Assembly: GCA_035515475.1 (NCBI GenBank) | Contig: DATJBF010000008.1 | Location: 1,899-65,898, forward strand | Direction: 5' to 3' | DNA from: Verrucomicrobiia bacterium | Lineage (GTDB): Bacteria > Verrucomicrobiota > Verrucomicrobiia > Palsa-1439 | DNA length: 64,000 nt | Shown here: positions 2,304-34,436 of the stretch, piece after piece | Position numbering within the stretch: the first letter of the stretch is position 1 | Layout: the number at the start of each line of letters is the position of its first letter | Notes under the pieces: model-generated | Database searches by the model: none | The model's input: only the letters and a program-made list of their open reading frames with translations | What the model was told of the DNA's origin: nothing | Program-made: the position numbers and the translations under genes

Positions 2304-2407
2304 TGGTCGCGATTCTAACCACAACGGGCCCAAACTGGAAACAAAGGATTTGATTGGGGAAAGCAGTGGATTTTCCTGTCAGCTTTTGGTCGCTTTCGAC
2401 CACTATT

Positions 2408-3892
2408 ATGGTGAGAATGAAGGCGACCTTGAACACCGAGTCAGCCAGCGATGAGCGGCTGGTGTTGAGCAGCCGAAATGGTGACCGCGACGCGTTTGCC
2501 CGGATTGTGGAGCGGTATCAATCCTTGATCTGTGCCCTGACCTACGTTGCCTGTGGCGATCTACAGACCAGCGAAGACCTGGCGCAGGTGACGTTCATCA
2601 CAGCCTGGTGCGAACTGCCGAAACTGCAAGAGCCTTCCAAGCTCAAATCCTGGCTGTGCGGGATCGCCCGCAATGTGACCAACAATTCCTTTCGTCAGAA
2701 ACAGCGGACGCCCACGGCGAACGCTGCGGACTTGGATGAGATTATCGACATCCCCTCGGAAGCGCCGTCGCCGCGCGATCATGTGATCTCGAAGGAAGAA
2801 GAAGCGATCCTGTGGCGGGCGTTGGGCGAACTGCCGCCAACGTATCGCGAACCGCTGGTGTTGTTCTATCGTCAACATCAATCGGCGGCCGAGGTGGCGG
2901 AAGTGCTCGGCCTATCGGAAGATGCCGTTCATCAACGTCTTTCGCGCGGGCGGACAATGTTGACCGAGCGCGTCGCGCGGTTTGTGGAAACCACGTTGAG
3001 CAGCACCGGACCGACGCAGGTGTTCACCGTCGGCGTGCTGGCAGCGTTGCCAGCCGGTCCGGCAGCAATGGTGAGTGTCTGCATGGCGGGCAAGGGCTCG
3101 GCGGCAGCCAAGTCGGGTTTTCTGGCCGCGTGGGTGGCGCCCTTTATTGGAATTGCTGCCGGCGTCGTGGCACAATGTCTGATCATCCGTGCCACCACGC
3201 CGGACCGCAAACTGCGGGTCAAAAACACCGTACAACTTGTCGTTGGTTGGATTGTCCTGCTGGGAATTGCCATCGCCGGGCCGAATGCCGTGCATGCTCT
3301 GGGACATCACTTTGAGTGGGGTAGCCGGACTCGTTTTGTCGCGATGGCGGGCTTTTGGTGGTGCTATTGCATGGGCCTGCAGACTTTGGCCATCGTGGGG
3401 TTTGCCCATATCCTGGGCATCAGCCGACAGAGCGGGAAGGCCGGCGAAACTCCCCAGCCGGCCAACCCGCCGATGAAGCCGGGCACACTCGCGATGGTGG
3501 TGGCCGGCGTGCATTTGGCGCTGTTTTCGTGGCTGGTTCGTCTGGCGTGGCGTGCCGATGATCTGATGGCGGCCGGAGTCATCGCGGGAATGATGGTTGT
3601 GCTGGGCATTGCGGCTTTCTTCAACACTCGCGGCAAGACCGGAGCAGCCCTCGCGCGGGCCACCGCCGCCCATATGGCTGTGTGCGGCACAGTGCTGCTG
3701 GTGACATTGAACCTGCGATTGGACGTGTGGGTGGCGTCCGCGTACGGAGTCACCGTTGCCGAAGCGCACCGTCTGCAACCGGTGTGGATTGTTCCTCTGC
3801 TCACGTTGGCCTTCCTCATCTGGAGCGGAGTGGTCGTGGCCCTGACCAAATCCAAACGCGTTGCCCGATTCCCTCGAAACCCAGCCTTGTAA
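2408..3892 (+). CDS. ECF sigma-70 family factor fused to a C-terminal polytopic (~8 TM) membrane domain (ORF from 2354; probable start ~2408-2417)
   Basis: Sigma region 2 ('DAFARIVERYQSLICALTYVACGD...EDLAQVTFITAW') and region 4 ('LPPTYREPLVLFYRQHQSAAEVAEVLGLSEDAVHQRLSRGRTML'); ~8 hydrophobic helices follow to the C-terminus. Confidence 0.8.
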   Translation: MVRMKATLNTESASDERLVLSSRNGDRDAFARIVERYQSLICALTYVACGDLQTSEDLAQVTFITAWCELPKLQEPSKLKSWLCGIARNVTNNSFRQKQRTPTANAADLDEIIDIPSEAPSPRDHVISKEEEAILWRALGELPPTYREPLVLFYRQHQSAAEVAEVLGLSEDAVHQRLSRGRTMLTERVARFVETTLSSTGPTQVFTVGVLAALPAGPAAMVSVCMAGKGSAAAKSGFLAAWVAPFIGIAAGVVAQCLIIRATTPDRKLRVKNTVQLVVGWIVLLGIAIAGPNAVHALGHHFEWGSRTRFVAMAGFWWCYCMGLQTLAIVGFAHILGISRQSGKAGETPQPANPPMKPGTLAMVVAGVHLALFSWLVRLAWRADDLMAAGVIAGMMVVLGIAAFFNTRGKTGAALARATAAHMAVCGTVLLVTLNLRLDVWVASAYGVTVAEAHRLQPVWIVPLLTLAFLIWSGVVVALTKSKRVARFPRNPAL

Positions 3893-4047
3893 ACAAGGCT
3901 GTACCGCAATTTGGGCAGCCGCACTCGTGGCAGTCACCAGATCAAGGAACTGCCGTCTCACAACTTCTTGGTGTGTCTGCGAAGCTTGCGCTTTGCCCAT
4001 GGCGTTCTTGTCACCTCTTCCGTCTTTCCCGGTACTGATACGGTGCT

Positions 4048-5802
4048 ATGATGACGACCGGGAAAATGCCTGTGGCAGGGGACAGCGACGCGCAACTGGT
4101 GGAATGGAGTCTGACGGGCGACCGTGAAGCGTTCGGCCGGATCGTCGAGCGGTATCAATCTCTGGTTTGCTCGATCACCTACGGTGCGACCGGCAGCTTG
4201 ACCCTGAGCGAGGACCTCGCCCAGGAGACCTTCGTTACCGCGTGGAAACGGCTTTCGGAATTGCGTGAGCCGACGAAGCTGCGGGCGTGGTTGTGCGGCA
4301 TCACCCGCTTCCTGATCGGCAAAGAACTCCGGCGACAGGGCCGCGAACCGGTTCACGCTGCCGAACCGCTGGATACGGTTCAGGAACCGGCCGCACCGGA
4401 ACCGTCTCCATCCGCCCGGGCCATCGGTCGCGAGGAAGAAGCGATTCTCTGGCGCGCGCTGGAACAGATGCCCACCACATATCGCGAACCGTTGATTCTG
4501 TTCTATCGTGAACACCAATCGGTCGCACGCGTAGCAGAAGAACTGGAGTTGAGCGAGGACGCGGTGAAACAAAGGCTCTCGCGCGGGCGGACGATGTTGA
4601 CCGAGCAGGTCGCCGCATTCGTCGAGGGCGCGTTGCAGCAGACAACGCCGGGCCGGGCGTTCACGCTGGGCGTGCTGGCGGCGTTGCCGGCGCTCACAAC
4701 TTCCGTTAAGACGGCGACCGCGGCTTTGTCTGAAGCGGCCCATCACGGCACGACAACCTTGGAGGTAACCAAAGCGTTGGCCATGACAACCACACAGAAG
4801 ATTTTGATCGCTACCGCCGCCGCGAGCGTCGCGGTGGCGACCAGCACGGCGGTGTACGAAACGCACCACACGTCACAATTGCAGGAGGAGATTCGGACGC
4901 TCGAGCAACAGCAAGAACCGCTTACTGAACAGGTCCGGCAGTTGCGTCAGGAGCGGGATGGGGCCAGGCACAACGTAGCGGTGCTGCAGCAGGAAAACGA
5001 ACAACTCCGCCTCGACACTGCCGAACTCGTCAAACTGCGCGGCAAGATGGCACAACTGCAGGCGCCAGTTGGTCCGTCCGTCGCAGCGACGGGCAGTAAG
5101 TTGGCGGAGAGACTGAAGAACCCGCAGACGAGGCAGGAGGAGCGGACCCAGCAGAGGTGGATGATCTATAACATGTATGGAGGCCTGTCCAAGTACTTGA
5201 ACCTCCCGGCGGATGAAATGGACGCACTCAAGGAGTTGCTCGTGGAACGCAACATGGCGAATTTGGATGCACTCGTTTCCATTGAGAGTCAACCAGAGGT
5301 CGATCCGAAGCAGCTAAACGAGGCCCGCACCGCGGTGCAAGCGGAGTACAACCGTAAGATCCAAGATCTGCTCGGCCCTCAGGATTACGCAATCTTCGAG
5401 GATTACAATAAGAGCGCAAGTTTTCGCTGGGCCGTTCAGACCTTCAAGAGTGAGCTTCCGGTCGCCGATGCGTTGACCGATCAGCAGGAAAATGACCTGG
5501 TTCACGCCATCTTCGAAGCGAGCAACACCGTGCCGGTCTCGCCCGAGTTGTGGAATTTGCCGGTGGATCGGTCGCAATGGACAGAAGAACAGGTGGCAGA
5601 GTGGCTGAAAGCAGAGGAGCTGCGTCACCAGTTGTGCGTTGAGCGGGCGGCGACGGTCCTCAGTCCCGCGCAACTTGAGCGATTCGAAACCTATCAAGAC
5701 GAGGACTACGCCATGCAGGCGGAGTACGTCAAGGGGTTGCAGAAATCCGCGAACAAAGCCGCCGTGCAACCGCCTACTGCCACCCAAAGCGAAGCACATT
5801 GA
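4048..5802 (+). CDS. ECF sigma factor fused to single TM + coiled coil + conserved ~230-aa extracytoplasmic domain
   Basis: Sigma2/4 regions nearly identical in pattern to the previous gene, plus the shared linker 'FT(L/V)GVLAALPA'; C-terminal domain is homologous to ORF 5926-6945 (motifs 'YG(G/S)LSKYLNLPAD', 'KIQDLLGPQDY'). Confidence 0.8.
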   Translation: MMTTGKMPVAGDSDAQLVEWSLTGDREAFGRIVERYQSLVCSITYGATGSLTLSEDLAQETFVTAWKRLSELREPTKLRAWLCGITRFLIGKELRRQGREPVHAAEPLDTVQEPAAPEPSPSARAIGREEEAILWRALEQMPTTYREPLILFYREHQSVARVAEELELSEDAVKQRLSRGRTMLTEQVAAFVEGALQQTTPGRAFTLGVLAALPALTTSVKTATAALSEAAHHGTTTLEVTKALAMTTTQKILIATAAASVAVATSTAVYETHHTSQLQEEIRTLEQQQEPLTEQVRQLRQERDGARHNVAVLQQENEQLRLDTAELVKLRGKMAQLQAPVGPSVAATGSKLAERLKNPQTRQEERTQQRWMIYNMYGGLSKYLNLPADEMDALKELLVERNMANLDALVSIESQPEVDPKQLNEARTAVQAEYNRKIQDLLGPQDYAIFEDYNKSASFRWAVQTFKSELPVADALTDQQENDLVHAIFEASNTVPVSPELWNLPVDRSQWTEEQVAEWLKAEELRHQLCVERAATVLSPAQLERFETYQDEDYAMQAEYVKGLQKSANKAAVQPPTATQSEAH

Positions 5803-5925
5803 GGCTGCCGGTCTTTTTCCCGATCTTCTGTCAGGCCGCGCCCAACGCCCTCCGGGCGCGCCGCGACCAGCAGCGCAGTGAAACTGGGAGCTTGTGGGAT
5901 TCGGGTCGTTTTGGTTCTGTAGTGG

Positions 5926-6945
5926 ATGACAACGACCGGAGGTCGGCCTATGAAACGAGACGCCTTGTTGGTTGTGTTGGTTGTCGCGGTCAGCACGCTG
6001 GCCATCGTGGTCGTACGTCAGCGAAGCGAGATCGCGGAATTAAAGAAGACCGCCGAGGAAGCCGCCGCGGCCAAACAAGTTGCTTCGGCCAAACCACGAT
6101 CAGTTCTTCCACCAAAGAAAGAATTGCCGGAGCCGATGCCGGAAGCTGCCCCGGCTGAACCCGCTGCCACCCCGGTGCCTGCCGCGCCGGTCACGAACGC
6201 ACCCACCGGCACCGGCGGCGCCGTCAGCAATTACTTCTCGAGTCTCGCGAACATGATGAAGGATCCCCGGATGAAAGAGGTGATCCGCATCCAGCAAAAG
6301 ATGACGCTCGACAAGATGTACGGATCGCTGTCCAAGTACCTGAACCTGCCTGCCGACAAACTGGACGCGTTGAAAGAGTTGCTCGTGAATCGCCAGATGG
6401 CCATGACCGAAGCAGGAATGGCCCTGATGACCGGGTCCGGGGACCGGACGCAAGCGGCAGCGGAAGCCAAGACCGTCAAGGCGGACTACGACAAGAAGAT
6501 TCAGGATTTTCTCGGCCCTGAGGATTATGAGACCTTCCAGGATTACGAGAAGACCGTAAGCGAGCGCGTGCAAATCCAGATGTTCAAGGACGCCTTGCCG
6601 GCCGATGCGGCGCTGACCGACCAGCAGGAGGACGACCTGATCAACGCGATGTATGAAGAACGGAAAACCCTGCCGCCGTCGTCACTGATAAACAGCCAGA
6701 CCACCGACCCATCACAGTTGACCGAAGAGCGGGTTGCCGAGGCGTTGAAGCAATGGGAGGAGTTGCAGCAGCGGTATGCCGACCGGGCGGCAGCAATTCT
6801 CACCCCGGCTCAACTCGATCAATTCACCAAATGGCAGCAACAATTCAGTGCCATGCAAGTAGCCGGCCTGAAAATGGCCGCGGCGATGTTCGGAAACAAA
6901 GGAACGCAGTCGTCGCCGTCTCCCAGCCCGGGTCCGACGCCGTGA
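5926..6945 (+). CDS. Membrane-anchored protein (TM + coiled coil + conserved domain), stand-alone paralog of the C-terminal extension of ECF fusion 4048-5802; putative anti-sigma/sensor-like partner
   Basis: N-terminal TM 'LLVVLVVAVSTLAIVVV', coiled coil, then 'MYGSLSKYLNLPADKLDALKELLVNR...KIQDFLGPEDYETFQDYEKT' homologous to the gene 4048-5802 C-terminus; its stop overlaps the start of the next ECF sigma (GTGA). Confidence 0.7.
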   Translation: MTTTGGRPMKRDALLVVLVVAVSTLAIVVVRQRSEIAELKKTAEEAAAAKQVASAKPRSVLPPKKELPEPMPEAAPAEPAATPVPAAPVTNAPTGTGGAVSNYFSSLANMMKDPRMKEVIRIQQKMTLDKMYGSLSKYLNLPADKLDALKELLVNRQMAMTEAGMALMTGSGDRTQAAAEAKTVKADYDKKIQDFLGPEDYETFQDYEKTVSERVQIQMFKDALPADAALTDQQEDDLINAMYEERKTLPPSSLINSQTTDPSQLTEERVAEALKQWEELQQRYADRAAAILTPAQLDQFTKWQQQFSAMQVAGLKMAAAMFGNKGTQSSPSPSPGPTP

Positions 6946-7643
6946 CGACCACTGCAGCCAGCCGCTTCGCCGCGACGCGTTGGACGATCGTGTTGGCCGC
7001 CGGTCACGGCACGTCCCCACAAGCCGGACGCGCTTTGGAGGAATTGTGCCGGACGTATTGGTATCCGCTCTACGCCTACGTCCGCCGGCGCGGTTACGAG
7101 TCGCACGAGGCGGAGGATCTTACGCAGGAGTTCTTCGCGCGTCTGCTGGCAAAGAAATACCTGGCAGATGTGGACCGGGAGAAGGGACGATTCCGCTCGT
7201 TTCTGTTGGCGTCGTTGAAACATTTTCTAGCGAACGAATGGGACCGGGCGCATGCCCAAAAACGCGGTGGCGGCCAGACACTCGTCTCGCTGGACGCCGA
7301 GACGCGTTATCAACGCGAGCCGGTCGATGAGGCGAGCGCCGACAAACTGCTCGACCGGGCGTGGGCGGTCGCCTTGTTGGACCAGGTGCTGGCCCGGCTG
7401 GAGATGGAGAGCGAACCCAAGCAGTTCGCGGCGCTGAAAGCGTTTCTCACGGTTGGCCAAGACGCGATTCCCTACGCCGAAGTGGCCGGCAAGCTGGGCA
7501 CGACCGAGGGCGCTGTGAAAGTGGCCGTGCACCGGCTGCGCAAGCGGTACCGGGCCCTGTTGCGCGAAGAAATCGCCCACACGGTGGCCAGCCCCGCAGA
7601 AATCGACGACGAAATCCGTCATTTGTTTGCCGCGTTCCGGTAA
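6942..7643 (+). CDS. ECF sigma factor of the Ser/Thr-kinase-associated type (probable GTG start at 6942; no in-frame ATG)
   Basis: 'WYPLYAYVRRRGYESHEAEDLTQEFFARLL' (sigma2) and 'IPYAEVAGKLGTTEGAVKVAVHRLRKRYRALL' (sigma4); located directly upstream of the FHA and STK genes. Confidence 0.8.
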   Translation: MTTTAASRFAATRWTIVLAAGHGTSPQAGRALEELCRTYWYPLYAYVRRRGYESHEAEDLTQEFFARLLAKKYLADVDREKGRFRSFLLASLKHFLANEWDRAHAQKRGGGQTLVSLDAETRYQREPVDEASADKLLDRAWAVALLDQVLARLEMESEPKQFAALKAFLTVGQDAIPYAEVAGKLGTTEGAVKVAVHRLRKRYRALLREEIAHTVASPAEIDDEIRHLFAAFR

Positions 7644-7690: not shown

Positions 7691-8041
7691 ATGGCATTTC
7701 TCTACCAAATCCGGGCCGATGGCATGGTGATCGAGCACCGGGAGATTGGCGATGAGCCGGTCGTCGTCGGTCGCGGTCACGGTGCCGATCTGGAAGTGGA
7801 CGACCGACGGCTTTCCCGGGCGCACTTTGTGGTCGCTCGTGAAGGCGACGCATTCATCGTTCGCGACCTGAACTCCACCAACGGCACATGGGTGCACGGG
7901 CGGCGCGTTTCCGCGGTGCTGCTGAAACCGCATGACCACATCGGCGCGGGGCGGACGCGATTTCTCTTTGAGCCAGGGCTGACCACAGCGATGGAAGCGC
8001 TGGAGGGAAGTCGAGCCGGCGACACGGAGATCATGGCGTGA
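7691..8041 (+). CDS. FHA (forkhead-associated) domain protein
   Basis: 'VVGRG...ADLEVDDRRLSRAHFVV...IVRDLNSTNGTWVHGRRV' FHA signature (GR...SR.H...S.NGT.VNG). Confidence 0.85.
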   Translation: MAFLYQIRADGMVIEHREIGDEPVVVGRGHGADLEVDDRRLSRAHFVVAREGDAFIVRDLNSTNGTWVHGRRVSAVLLKPHDHIGAGRTRFLFEPGLTTAMEALEGSRAGDTEIMA

Positions 8042-11680: not shown

Positions 11681-12094
11681 ATGAGAACAATCCGACTACT
11701 GATGGTGGCCACGGCCGTTGCGGTGTGGCCTCTGGCCGCCATCAACAGCGGGGCGGAGGACATCGATTCGATGCCGCCCGTGGTGGTCAAAACCGTGCCC
11801 GAATCAGGCGCCAAGGACGTTGCGCCCGGCGTGGTGGAAATCAAGGTCACCTTCAGCAAAGAGATGACCGACAAATCCTGGAGTTGGTGTTACGCCTGGC
11901 CAGGTTCGATTGCCGAGTCTGCGGGAGACATCCGCTACGAAGGCGACCACAAGACATGTGTGTGGAAAGTCAAACTAGAGCCCCACAAGACGTACGCCTA
12001 TTGGCTGAACACCGCCAAATTCCAGGACTTCAGAGACAAGCAGGGCCATGCTGCCGTGCCGTACCTGCTCGTCTTCCAGACGAAGGGGAATTGA
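11681..12094 (+). CDS. Small secreted protein, stand-alone paralog of the kinase C-terminal Big_5-like Ig domain
   Basis: Signal peptide 'MRTIRLLMVATAVAVWPLAA'; 'PPVVVKTVPESGAKDVAPGVVEIKVTFSKEMTDKSWSWCYAW...KTYAYWLN...AAVPYLLVFQTK' aligns with the kinase tail 'PPVVVCTQPVSGARDVEPGLAEIRATFSKEMTDRSWSWCYAW...RTYAFWLN...PAVPYLLIFQTK'. Confidence 0.8.
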   Translation: MRTIRLLMVATAVAVWPLAAINSGAEDIDSMPPVVVKTVPESGAKDVAPGVVEIKVTFSKEMTDKSWSWCYAWPGSIAESAGDIRYEGDHKTCVWKVKLEPHKTYAYWLNTAKFQDFRDKQGHAAVPYLLVFQTKGN

Positions 12095-12232
12095 GTGTTC
12101 AGCCGGTAGTTTTGTCGGTTTTTGGAGACGGCGACGCACGCGTCAAAGTCAGGAGCGGCAAGGGAGCGATCGGCATCCGACGGGGTGAGACGACGAGAAG
12201 TGAACAACTGCATCCAGAAGGTGAGTCAGCAA

Positions 12233-14182
12233 ATGAGAAGACAAGGCCAGGTTCTTTCTGGGCAACCGCGCGGCGCCCGGGCAGTCGTGTTCGTAGCCGC
12301 CACGGCAACGGTCGTCGCTGCGCTGGTTGCGCACGCGGTTAGCGCGCAGGCGCAAAGCGCCACTCCCACACGGATTCCGCTGCGCGATTTCTTCCGCAAT
12401 CCGGAGCGGACGGCGTTTCAGGTCTCGGAGGACGGTAAGACCATCTCGTTCCTGGCGCCCTACGAGCGACGACTGAATCTGTTCGTGCAAGCACGCGGCA
12501 CGACGGAAGCCAGGCGCATCACGTCCATCACCGACCGCAGCATCGCGAACTACATGTGGAAAGGCAGCGACCAACTGCTGTTCAGCAAAGATACCGGCGG
12601 AGACGAGAATTTTCATCTGTTCACCGTGAGTAAGGAAGGCGGCGAAGTGAAAGACCTCACCCCGTTCGAGAAGGTCCGGTCCGGGTTCGTGGACCGACTG
12701 TGGGACGATCCGGATCACATTCTCATCTCGATGAACAAGCGCGACCCGAAAGTGTTCGACCTGTACCGCATTCACGTCATCACGGGCCGACTTGAGCTCG
12801 TCGCGGAAAACCCTGGCGACGTGACGCACTGGGTGACCGATTATGCGGGCCGCGTTCGGGCTGTCGTCGCGACTGACGGAGTGAACCGCACGCTGTTGTA
12901 TCGGGAGACCGAGACGAACAGTTTCCAGAAGATCCTGACCACCGATTTCCGCGAGCGGCTGGACCCGCAGTTCTTTACGTTCGACAACGCCTATCTCATC
13001 GCCGCTTCCAACCGCGGCCGCGACAAGATCGAGATCGTCAAGCTCGACCCGCACTCGGGCCAAGAGTTGAGCGTCATCGCGCGCCGCCCGGACGTCGATA
13101 TGGACGGCGCCAGCTACTCGCGTCAGCGAAAAGTGCTCACCGAGGCGCATTACACGACGTGGAAGGAAGAGCGCGAATTCCTCGACGGCGAGACCGCCGC
13201 GATGTACCGGCGCATCAAGGCCAAGTTGCCCGGCTACGAAATCGCCAGCCTCGACAATCACGACCGCGCCGAACAGACATTCATCGTTCACGCCTACAAC
13301 GATCGCACGCGTGGCGCCGATTATCTTTACGACAAACGCTCGGGCGAACTCACCAAACTCGCCGACCGCACACCATGGCTCCACGAGAGCGACATGGCAG
13401 AAATGAGACCGATCACGTACAGATCCCGCGATGGCCTGACCATTCATGGCTACCTCACCTTGCCCAGAGGCGTGAAACGGAGGAATCTTCCCGTCGTCGT
13501 CGTCCCGCACGGTGGCCCGTGGTATCGCGACGATTGGTCCTTCGATCCGGAAGTGCAGTTTCTGGCCAACCGCGGCTACGCCGTCCTGCAAATGAACTTC
13601 CGCGGTTCGACCGGTTACGGGAAGAACTTCTGGGAAACTTCCTTCAAGCAATGGGGCCGCAAAATGCAGGACGACATCACCGACGGCGTTCATTGGCTCG
13701 TGCGGAAGGGGATTGCCAATCCGAAGAGAATCGCAATCTACGGTGGCAGCTACGGCGGGTATGCCGCGCTGGCCGGCGTCACGTTCACGCCCGACCTCTA
13801 TGCCTGCGGCATCGACTACGTCGGCGTCGCCAACATGTTCACCTTCCTGAAAACGATTCCGCCCTACTGGGAGCCATTCCGTCAGATGTGGTACGAAATG
13901 GTCGGCGACCCGGTCAAAGACAAGCAACTGCTCGAGGACGTCTCCCCTGTCTTTCATGTTGACCGCGTCAAAGTGCCGATGCTCATTGCCCAAGGAGCCA
14001 ACGACCCGCGCGTCAACAAGAACGAGTCCGACCAGATGGTCGAAGCGTTGCGCAAACACGGGATTCCTGTCGAGTACATCGTCAAAGACAACGAAGGCCA
14101 CGGCTTCCGAAACGAAGAAAACCGCTTCGAGTTCTACGAGGCGATGGAGGAATTCCTCGCCGAGCATCTGAACAACAACTGA
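12233..14182 (+). CDS. S9 family serine peptidase (prolyl oligopeptidase / dipeptidyl aminopeptidase-like), secreted (ORF from 12122; signal-peptide start ~12233)
   Basis: '[12 protein letters not shown]' (GxSxGG nucleophile), 'ANDPRV', 'NEGHGF' catalytic triad context; beta-propeller-like N-terminal half. Confidence 0.8.
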
Positions 14183-14199: not shown

Positions 14200-15963
14200 A
14201 TGCCAACACTGAGCGCGCGAACCATCACTTCCTTGCTCCTGCGCGGTATTCTAGCCCTCGCCGCTGCGACGGCCTTCGGTCAAACCGAAACGCCGACGCC
14301 CGAACAAATCAAGGAGCGGGTTACGATCCGGCGTCCGTACACGATCGGGGAGGAAGCCGAAGTGAACCTGCCCATCGGACAGGCGGTGCAGTTCGACTGT
14401 GCCGACAATCCGTATTGGGTGCGGGAATATATTCTTTATGCCGCGCCTGATAATCAAATCTGGGTCTGCCCTCTCGACGCCGAAGGCGACCAGATGGACA
14501 CCAGTGGACCCTGTCTCCAGAAGAAGCGGGGATGGCTCCGACAGATGGCAGATACACCATGTCTGGCGATCATCAAATGGGACCTCCAAGACCAAACGCT
14601 GCGGCTTCACTTCTGCCTGTCCACGGACAAGGAGCGAGACCAACGCGAGTGGGACGAGGCGACCAGGGAAGAATCCAACATGGCTCGTGGACGGAATGAC
14701 TCCAGACCATTTCCACCGCGCAAGCTGTCCGAAACCGACCGGCTGGCGGGATTTGCCCGGTTGTGGAGCGAGGTCAAATACAACTTTGCATTCTTCGACC
14801 GCGTTCCCGAGGTGGACTGGGACAAAGTGTTGGTGGAATACATCCCCAAAGTCCAACAGGCGGAGACGGAGGATGAATATTTCTGCGTGCTCGCGCGCTG
14901 TCTGGCCCTGCTGCATGACGGGCATACCGACATCCAAACCGCCATGGCTCACCCGGACTACGGAGCTTATGGGCTACCTCTGGAAGTTCGTTCGTTGGAC
15001 GGCAAGCGAGCGGTCATTGTCCGCACGACGCCGGTCGCGGATGTCGGGGGTCCGAAGCGCAAAGAGGAATTCGTCAAAGCGAACTTGAAGCCTGGCGAAG
15101 AGGTCACGCACATCAACGGGCGATCCATCGAAGAGATTCTGGAACGGGGTATTTACCCCTATATCAGCGCTTCCACTCCACAAGGCCGGGATGTGAGAGC
15201 TTACCCGTGGCTTCTGCTGGGCGAATGCGGTTCCAGGGCCGTTCTGCGCATCAAGGGCTTGGACGGAACCGAGCGTGAAGTGGCCCTGACACGAGGCTCC
15301 TATCCGAAAAAGCAACCGGCCAACGTCTTCGAGCATCGTGAACTGGACAACGGCATCCACTACGTCAATCTGCCGGGCTTCCAGACAAATCAGGTGGTCA
15401 AAGACTTCGAGAGAATTTTCCCGCAGGTGCAAAAGGCCAAAGGTCTGATCTTGGATATCCGGCACAACGGTGGTGGAAACTCCGGTAACGGTGAGGCGAT
15501 CGTCCGCATGCTGATAGATAAACCCATCCAGGCATCACCGTGCAAAACACCCGAAAACGTCGCCGCATTCCGGTGCTGGGGAGTGAAAGAGCAATTCTGT
15601 GAGCTGCGACCCGACTCACTCCAACCCAGCCGGCCAGACCCATTCCTTGGGCCGGTAGCTGTGCTGACCGGGCCGGAAACGTTCAGTGCTGCGGAAGACT
15701 TTGTTGTGCTGCTGCACGCCAGCAGGCGGGCGACGGTCGTCGGCGAACGCACCGGCGGGTCCACCGGCCAACCTCTGACGATTGACCTGCCCGGCGGGGT
15801 GAAGGCCCAAGTCTGCACGAAACACGACACATATCCCAACGGGCGCGAGTTTGTGGGTGTCGGCGTAATCCCCGACGTGGAGATTCATCCCACGGCAGCG
15901 GATATCGCCACGGATCGAGACGTCGTTCTTAAAAAGGCAATTCAGGTTCTGCTCGCAAGATGA
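14200..15963 (+). CDS. S41 family peptidase (C-terminal processing / tail-specific protease-like), secreted
   Basis: Signal peptide; 'DIRHNGGGNSGNG' and 'LTGPETFSAAEDFVVLL' (S41 Ser-containing motif). Confidence 0.7.
   Translation: MPTLSARTITSLLLRGILALAAATAFGQTETPTPEQIKERVTIRRPYTIGEEAEVNLPIGQAVQFDCADNPYWVREYILYAAPDNQIWVCPLDAEGDQMDTSGPCLQKKRGWLRQMADTPCLAIIKWDLQDQTLRLHFCLSTDKERDQREWDEATREESNMARGRNDSRPFPPRKLSETDRLAGFARLWSEVKYNFAFFDRVPEVDWDKVLVEYIPKVQQAETEDEYFCVLARCLALLHDGHTDIQTAMAHPDYGAYGLPLEVRSLDGKRAVIVRTTPVADVGGPKRKEEFVKANLKPGEEVTHINGRSIEEILERGIYPYISASTPQGRDVRAYPWLLLGECGSRAVLRIKGLDGTEREVALTRGSYPKKQPANVFEHRELDNGIHYVNLPGFQTNQVVKDFERIFPQVQKAKGLILDIRHNGGGNSGNGEAIVRMLIDKPIQASPCKTPENVAAFRCWGVKEQFCELRPDSLQPSRPDPFLGPVAVLTGPETFSAAEDFVVLLHASRRATVVGERTGGSTGQPLTIDLPGGVKAQVCTKHDTYPNGREFVGVGVIPDVEIHPTAADIATDRDVVLKKAIQVLLAR

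Positions 15964-28661: not shown

Positions 28662-34436
<5,775 letters not shown>

Follow-up and report, generated by a model that had tools for sequence, protein, structure and literature searches.

Two Verrucomicrobiia sigma factors fused to different membrane extensions, and a free copy of one extension domain, at a single locus

The 64,000-nucleotide stretch of a Verrucomicrobiia genome analysed here (contig DATJBF010000008.1 of assembly GCA_035515475.1; hereafter the window) harbors four consecutive genes, designated A to D. Genes A and B encode extracytoplasmic function (ECF) sigma factors that continue into different C-terminal extensions, gene C encodes a free-standing copy of the domain that ends the gene B extension (the C domain), and gene D encodes another ECF sigma factor. 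On our best reading, A and B are paralogues and belong to a large family of ECF sigma factors in the Verrucomicrobiia that are tethered to the membrane and act as one-component regulators. The features of the locus, with open reading frames (ORFs) and transmembrane (TM) segments as predicted, are as follows.

2368..2407, + strand: promoter-like motif upstream of gene A, cCTGTCAGCTTTT ... CACTATT-ATG, a variant of the family motif
2408..3892, + strand: gene A, an ECF sigma factor with a conserved hydrophobic linker and a 7-helix membrane domain; the ORF is open from 2354
4002..4047, + strand: promoter-like motif upstream of gene B, TTGTCACCTCTT at 4008-4019 ... TACTGAT
4048..5802, + strand: gene B, an ECF sigma factor that runs on through the conserved linker and a weak TM into a heptad-like helix and the C domain
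4700..4720, + strand: mosaic breakpoint in gene B, directly 3' of the linker codons
5950..6945, + strand: gene C, a C-domain protein in free form, with a reading frame that is open from 5926 onwards
6942..7643, + strand: gene D, a PF07638-type ECF sigma factor whose GTG start overlaps the stop codon of gene C; the ORF is open from 6753

Two start codons deserve comment. Gene C most likely begins at ATG 5950 and not at 5926, because a GGAGG lies 7 nt upstream (5939-5943), homologues begin with MKK or MKR, and its database copy (P0001) has 331 amino acids (aa). Gene B matches an NCBI protein (P0121) from a metagenome-assembled genome (MAG) at 100% and may start at 4051, given lengths of 583 aa for P0121 and 584 aa for the B ORF.

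Both A and B contain Sigma70_r2 (PF04542) and Sigma70_r4_2 (PF08281) in Pfam (E 1e-11 to 1e-14), and both exceed the cut-off of the ECF superfamily model TIGR02937 (88.7 and 78.4 bits, respectively, against 42.9), the most specific NCBIfam model that either reached. The gene A model also matched SigW, sigmaE and AlgU in Foldseek (E 3e-7). In gene A, sigma2 (aa 33-101) and sigma4 (aa 134-185) precede the linker (aa ~205-226) and a membrane domain (aa 232-480), and the protein ends in a lysine/arginine (K/R)-rich tail; in gene B, sigma2 (aa 32-99), sigma4 (aa 133-184) and the linker (aa 203-220) are followed by MTTTQK, a TM (aa ~245-267), a heptad-like helix (aa ~268-340) and the C domain (aa ~350-570). 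The extensions differ, as the original prediction had it, and have lengths of ~300 aa (A) and ~390 aa (B), whereas more than 50 aa after sigma4 already define an ECF sigma factor with a C-terminal extension. The sigma regions, first described as near-identical, are in fact 61% identical over 203 aligned amino acids (BLASTP, E 3e-78), and the shared linker FT(V/L)GVLAALPA does fall inside this alignment. AlphaFold2 (AF2) modeled gene A with a mean predicted local distance difference test (pLDDT) score of 78, with seven confidently predicted helices (residues 232-480) and a marginally hydrophobic conserved linker (200-233) at pLDDT below 50.

What separates sigma4 from the hydrophobic, proline-containing linker FTxGVLAALP is in both proteins a stretch of only ~15 residues; no anti-sigma domain is recognisable between sigma4 and the first TM, and no anti-sigma match in Pfam exceeded its cut-off. 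Two Pfam candidates in gene B were set aside: RskA_C, over the TM and coiled coil, stayed below its cut-off (17.1 bits against 29.4), and TMF_TATA_bd (30.1 bits) was taken as a generic coiled-coil match.

A search with gene B returned 5913 matches, of which the best 120 were nearly all long Verrucomicrobiia fusions annotated as "sigma-70 family"; these match B only across its first ~37%, at 54-92% identity (mostly 70-90%), and fall into length clusters of 480-500, 535-550, 570-590 and 730-790 aa. The unit of sigma and FTxGVLAALP linker is common to hundreds of Verrucomicrobiia proteins with at least four different extensions. The most frequent is the A-type (~480-500 aa, multi-helix membrane domain; 52 of 98 clustered proteins), with 51 homologues of gene A at 44-52% identity in which the extension is conserved. 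Others are a multi-TM, glycine-rich type (~535-550 aa), the B-type (~570-590 aa; P0121-P0123 and P0144), and a type in which a multi-TM region precedes the C domain (730-790 aa, 14 matches); P0137, in which a TM and a coiled coil lead into yet another domain, stands for at least one type more. The B-type architecture is kept in other genomes down to 40% identity (P0122, P0123 and P0144), and the relatives carry arrays of three to five sigma-fusion genes with varying gene content. The presence of full-length A-type and other fusions in many Verrucomicrobiia MAGs, together with these arrays, therefore indicates that neither A nor B is a pseudogene-like oddity. As a measure of family size, 2483 cluster representatives were found at E<=1e-30 with a profile of 739 positions that is dominated by sigma columns (those kept after MAFFT alignment and weighting) and hence measures the sigma family, not the C domain. 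Inside the sigma-fusion array of L001 and L006 (3641-6081) lie two adjacent paralogous genes (407 and 406 aa) that had no Pfam match and do not occur in the window.

Gene B itself is a mosaic at the DNA level. Over promoter, sigma and linker (~3998 to ~4716) it shares 85-97% of its DNA sequence with the P0125 gene (the sigma-550 gene of L007, MAG SPRUCE 672), a multi-TM paralogue in a close relative, with values of 78-97% in single stretches of 60 nt, and identity falls to ~45% directly after the linker codons; even the upstream stretch 4002-4047 is 80% identical to the region upstream of the L007 gene. At the protein level, the sigma part of B shares 90-92% with P0124 and P0125, which are of the 550-aa type, but 73-76% with P0122 and P0123, which are of the B-type and to which its TM and coiled coil show 65-68% identity. 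This split directly after the linker shows that gene B arose by exchange of its extension at the conserved linker. In addition, the segment MTTTQK-TM-YETH of gene B resembles the N-terminus of a free-standing gene (P0115, MKATQQ-TM-YETHR), which supports the view that the B extension started out as a separate gene.

Residues 339-568 of B and 92-319 of C align at 46% identity (E 4e-58) and share both motifs quoted in the original prediction, so that the same ~230-aa domain is indeed present in fused and free form, and across the matches it occurs in three architectures. Gene C starts with a short K/R tail and one strong TM, followed by a helix, a proline-rich linker and the C domain (aa 101-325 in the numbering from 5926), and AF2 folds residues ~100-325 into eight helices, an all-helical domain with pLDDT ~90. 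The expectation of an undescribed family held up: the domain had no match in Pfam or NCBIfam, none in the PDB at E<=10 with a profile from the family alignment, and none in the PDB below E=1 with Foldseek, and a literature search for the family returned general ECF classifications and reviews only. The two halves of the domain revealed no convincing internal repeat (hhalign, probability 2%). The label "anti-sigma-like", on the other hand, is not supported: the domain shows no similarity to any anti-sigma domain, and the ~15 residues between sigma4 and a linker that AF2 models at pLDDT below 50 leave little between sigma factor and membrane.

The free form was recovered from 39 species-level genomes (Verrucomicrobiia, Kiritimatiellae, Lentisphaeria, Chthoniobacter and one of the Planctomycetota), a distribution that shows free C to be the older, membrane-anchored family across the Planctomycetes-Verrucomicrobia-Chlamydiae (PVC) superphylum, with the fusions derived. 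The "evolutionary series" from separate to fused protein once read from this locus thus survives in part: the free form is old and PVC-wide and the fusions are derived, but gene B is a linker mosaic and no simple fusion of its neighbours. Its C domain is 48% identical to that of gene C and no nearer to it than to free copies elsewhere. In the close relatives L001, L004, L006 and L007, gene C lies directly 3' of a sigma-fusion gene, and this linkage is therefore a trait of that subclade. Two irregular copies were also seen. In L007, the closest relative, a frameshift divides the free C gene (11754-12739) into 242 and 85 aa, with the C-domain hidden Markov model match continuing across frames, which is either a sequencing error or a pseudogene; and P0126 (888 aa, on a 4.8-kb JGI contig) joins a 540-type sigma fusion in frame to a downstream free C gene, possibly as a natural read-through fusion or as an assembly or frameshift artefact.

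A shared upstream motif accompanies the fusions. In the 11 fusion genes examined from the window and four relatives (L001, L004, L006 and L007), all 11 carry, in this order, TTTCCTTGTCACCTTTTCG, ~12 nt, (C)ACTTAT, CGGTGA and the ATG, in short form TTGTCACC...ACTTAT just 5' of the ATG; TGTCA is invariant in the alignment of the 11 regions, and ~10 nt separate the -10-like ACTTAT from the start codon. Within the window the motif precedes only A and B, and the other matches with one mismatch are at chance level (8 found, 6.35 expected). The motif looks like a promoter, and the closeness of its -10-like element to the start codon leads one to expect leaderless or near-leaderless mRNAs; it thus suggests leaderless transcripts or a 5' regulatory element. 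Since autoregulation is common among ECF genes, an ECF auto-promoter is the natural guess. Upstream of gene C, an ECF-like TGTAAC-N15-CTTCT, found in three close relatives, degenerate in the window and absent at distant loci, was dropped.

How might such proteins work? As no anti-sigma domain fits the gap between sigma4 and the membrane, tethering with proteolytic release is the best-supported reading, and we put it forward, as a joint model, with somewhat less than even confidence. The sigma domain would be held inactive by its tethering to the membrane, and a signal sensed by the extension would lead to regulated proteolysis in or near the linker and thereby free the sigma factor, by analogy with IutY and with ECF48, ECF52 and ECF53, for which release by regulated proteolysis has been shown or proposed (PMC8999054). 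In gene B the C domain would be periplasmic, like that of free C, and serve as the sensor, either binding the same ligands or clients as free C or pairing with free C as a partner or decoy, comparable to CpxP and CpxA; free C itself would be an ancestral envelope protein that possibly partners or competes with the B domain. More speculatively, an ssrA-like "LAA" in the linker could act as a degradation signal after cleavage.

A periplasmic location is best indicated for free C, for which the N-terminal tail of 101 orthologues averages 4.1 aa with a net charge of +1.7, as against +1.0 after the TM, and one orthologue has a lipobox; the short K/R-rich tail and the lipobox variant point to a signal-anchor-like, exported protein. 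The C domain also offers a lead, albeit a weak one and not a finding, to the envelope proteins Spy and CpxP. Gene C contains two LTxxQ motifs (LTDQQ and LTPAQ; L230, T231, Q234, L292 and Q296 are invariant in the family), which hhalign places in register with those of E. coli Spy (sequence verified against 3OEO) at E 3.5e-4; a profile of greater diversity brought this to 5e-5, and the probabilities were 37-67%. The LTxxQ pattern also occurs generically as a helix cap. A few C-domain members match DUF4890 weakly (E 0.15-0.8), a model that Spy also touches. Furthermore, in the window (6250-6900) and in the family alignment, methionine is invariant or nearly so at eight positions (M110, M111, M116, M168, M242, M310, M317 and M321) that cluster in the first and last helices, a hint at a methionine-rich surface for hydrophobic peptides or Cu(I).

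Several observations weigh against the model of tethering, release and periplasmic sensing. The protease, the cleavage site and the processed form of A and B are so far proposals only. PF07813 and PF13801 (LTXXQ) had no match at E<=1 in 21 C-domain members, and no structural match of the C domain to Spy, CpxP, ZraP or CnrX was found. A sigma gene lies within 3 kb of free C at only 7 of the 39 species-level loci (one of them fused), which argues against the dedicated sigma-partner role once proposed for C, and at L009 and L010 its neighbours are unrelated housekeeping genes. The B TM is weakly hydrophobic (Kyte-Doolittle 1.21), and of 86 highly conserved positions 32 differ between the B C domain and the consensus of free C, as against 0-11 in other members; the B domain may thus function differently from C. 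Last, if the hydrophobic segments of the A-type and of the 730-790 aa type are numbered from the linker on, every second one has a K/R cluster after it (5, 9, 8, 3 vs 3, 1, 2, 1), a pattern by which the linker would be the first TM, gene A would have eight spans and the C domain of the 730-790 aa type would be cytoplasmic; this positive-inside result implies a conflict with a periplasmic C domain in B. The "~8-TM" domain first assigned to gene A is therefore sound for seven confident helices, and reaches eight only if the linker crosses the membrane. With only ~16 hydrophobic residues, a proline and a disordered AF2 model, the linker may do so only if a strongly oriented TM follows.

The same K/R pattern favors a different role for the domain, that of a cytoplasmic, anti-sigma-like inhibitor, acting in cis in B and the 750-aa type, and in trans, as free C, on the upstream sigma fusion. 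The position of C directly after the sigma-fusion gene in L001, L004, L006 and L007 is the usual order of sigma and anti-sigma genes, and an anti-sigma-like part C-terminal to TM helices has a precedent beside ECF241 (PMC7826278). We nevertheless consider this unlikely, given that the 4-aa K/R-rich tail and the lipoprotein variant of the free family speak for export, that at 32 of the 39 species loci a sigma gene is missing from the surrounding 3 kb, and that no similarity to anti-sigma domains emerged from Pfam, the PDB or Foldseek.

The divergence of the B domain and its weak TM could also mean that gene B arose by recombination only recently and that its C domain, now drifting, senses little or nothing, at a rearrangement-prone locus where the order of B, C and D is accidental. 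The sharp DNA breakpoint, the differing gene content of the arrays and the frameshifted C of L007 would agree with this; however, B has an intact 584-aa ORF and keeps all 27 of the family-invariant positions, and its architecture is conserved in distant homologues, so that we regard such decay as highly unlikely.

Finally, the sigma factors might act while still tethered, in the manner of ToxR and CadC, tuned by oligomerisation of the extension (through the coiled coil in B) or by a conformational change. Neither an anti-sigma element nor a recognisable cleavage module is present, a coiled coil adjoins the TM in B, P0137 and the sigma-534 protein of L008, and a near-leaderless promoter motif beside the genes could favor local action. 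Yet with ~15 residues between sigma4 and the membrane, assembly of the RNA polymerase holoenzyme on DNA would probably be sterically demanding, and the TM sigma fusions that have been studied (IutY and SCO4117) point to proteolytic activation. Action in the tethered state thus appears distinctly unlikely to us.

Gene D belongs to another system, which extends into the genes downstream:

7691..8041, + strand: FHA-domain protein (PF00498, E 1e-15), kept beside the kinase in L001
8269..11658, + strand: membrane Ser/Thr kinase of 1129 aa (Pkinase, E 9e-56; DUF4097; C-terminal Big_5)
11681..12094, + strand: small secreted Big_5 protein, a free copy of the kinase C-terminal domain (Big_5 match)

The TGA of gene C (6943-6945) does overlap the GTG of gene D at 6942 (ccGTGAcg), as noted from the outset. 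D had been called a plain ECF sigma factor, but BLASTP of B against D gave no match, and D matches PF07638 (26.7 bits, cut-off 21.1) and is followed by FHA and Pkinase genes, as kinase-linked ECF sigma factors are. Such kinase-linked groups are established (PMC7826278), and D shares with ECF43 and its relatives and with EcfK-PknS the combination of a PF07638-type sigma factor, an FHA protein and a Hanks-type kinase, a likeness limited to D and not extending to A, B or C. It is likely, judging from gene order, that the membrane kinase regulates D. In L001 and L004, D-like genes adjoin Ser/Thr kinase genes and not C: in L004 another gene intervenes between C and the D-like gene, and in L001 the D-like gene follows the kinase, the gene 382 bp downstream of C being not D-like. 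Since D-like genes thus stand beside kinases and away from C, and the overlap is not found in these relatives, it is to all appearances an accident of local spacing and not the functional C-D coupling initially supposed. That free C would be the sensor or anti-sigma partner of D, for which the overlap speaks, is accordingly extremely unlikely and largely refuted by synteny and by the PF07638 type and kinase neighbourhood of D.

The kinase has a parallel to B and C of its own. Its C-terminal Big_5 domain and the signal-peptide protein at 11681-12094 are 64% identical over 111 aa (E 7e-51), and the two apparently are a second pair of fused sensor domain and free copy at this locus, which fits the logic of B and C. 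One may go further and picture a plug-in system in which a constant cassette of promoter, sigma and linker receives sensors swapped at the linker, among them a captured, unannotated protein of the PVC envelope that is possibly a remote Spy/CpxP-like chaperone, with B and free C forming a titration pair that reports envelope folding stress and the kinase working alike; to this fuller scheme we assign a low probability.

Of the remaining surroundings, an adenylate/guanylate cyclase gene (192-2333, - strand; TM and a long TPR region) is divergent from gene A and adds a further membrane signalling protein at the edge of the array. A scan for sigma-70 consensus promoters and terminators gave no signal exceeding the shuffled expectation. 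A 1924-aa ORF (28662-34436, + strand) has duplicated UvrA-like ABC ATPase modules (Pfam UvrA_inter and UvrA_DNA-bind) and is about twice the length of canonical UvrA. A Peptidase_S41 gene (14200-15963, + strand; Prc/CtpA-like, Tricorn_C1) lies ~6 kb downstream; the carboxypeptidase Prc participates in the regulated proteolysis of the sigma fusion IutY (review PMC8999054).

Among known systems, ECF263 has a C-terminal extension with "five or seven" TM helices, and each ECF group is described as having a single type of extension (PMC7826278). Our proteins resemble ECF263 in their sigma2-sigma4 core, long C-terminal extension and lack of a separate anti-sigma gene, and gene A alone also in the seven helices that AF2 predicts after the linker (compared by the group description); they differ in that a near-constant sigma-linker unit carries at least four unrelated extensions. 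IutY (ECF243) and ECF48/52/53 (e.g., SCO4117) are likewise one-polypeptide devices in which the sigma factor is joined via TM helices to an extracytoplasmic domain, and are sigma factors fused to a membrane-bound anti-sigma part (PMC8999054); they have a FecR-like or zinc-finger anti-sigma domain between sigma4 and the TM, where A and B have ~15 residues and a disordered hydrophobic linker. Like CpxP, Spy and ZraP (PF07813/PF13801), the C domain is all-helical and probably belongs to the envelope; its two LTxxQ motifs line up with those of Spy at weak profile similarity, and CpxP is a free modulator of a membrane sensor, as proposed here for free C. The C domain is, however, about twice as long and has no conserved metal-binding His/Cys pattern, the conserved methionines being the sole hint. 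CnrX (of CnrYXH), with a membrane anchor and a helical domain, is like free C by architecture alone.

The locus hence adds a variant to the known one-protein sigma switches and is not a new kind of system, nor does it overturn current ideas. What appears to be new is a C-domain family captured by sigma factors (the C-domain extension appears new relative to the literature compared), a single sigma-linker unit with unrelated extensions and a swap point, and a family-wide motif. That fused extensions turn ECF sigma factors into "one-component" regulators is recognised, but to our knowledge very few such proteins have been studied and none from Verrucomicrobia. Four things come together at this locus. 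A ~230-aa family without annotation is conserved in Verrucomicrobiota, Kiritimatiellae and Lentisphaerae. The DNA itself gives direct evidence for the exchange of sensor modules at a conserved linker, next to a sigma part that hardly changes. The upstream motif is a candidate auto-promoter of the fusion family as a whole, and twice, side by side, a sensor domain occurs together with a free copy. If our reading is true, it would illustrate the way in which new signalling proteins are built from sigma factors, and would provide a testable model of envelope sensing in a poorly studied soil phylum.

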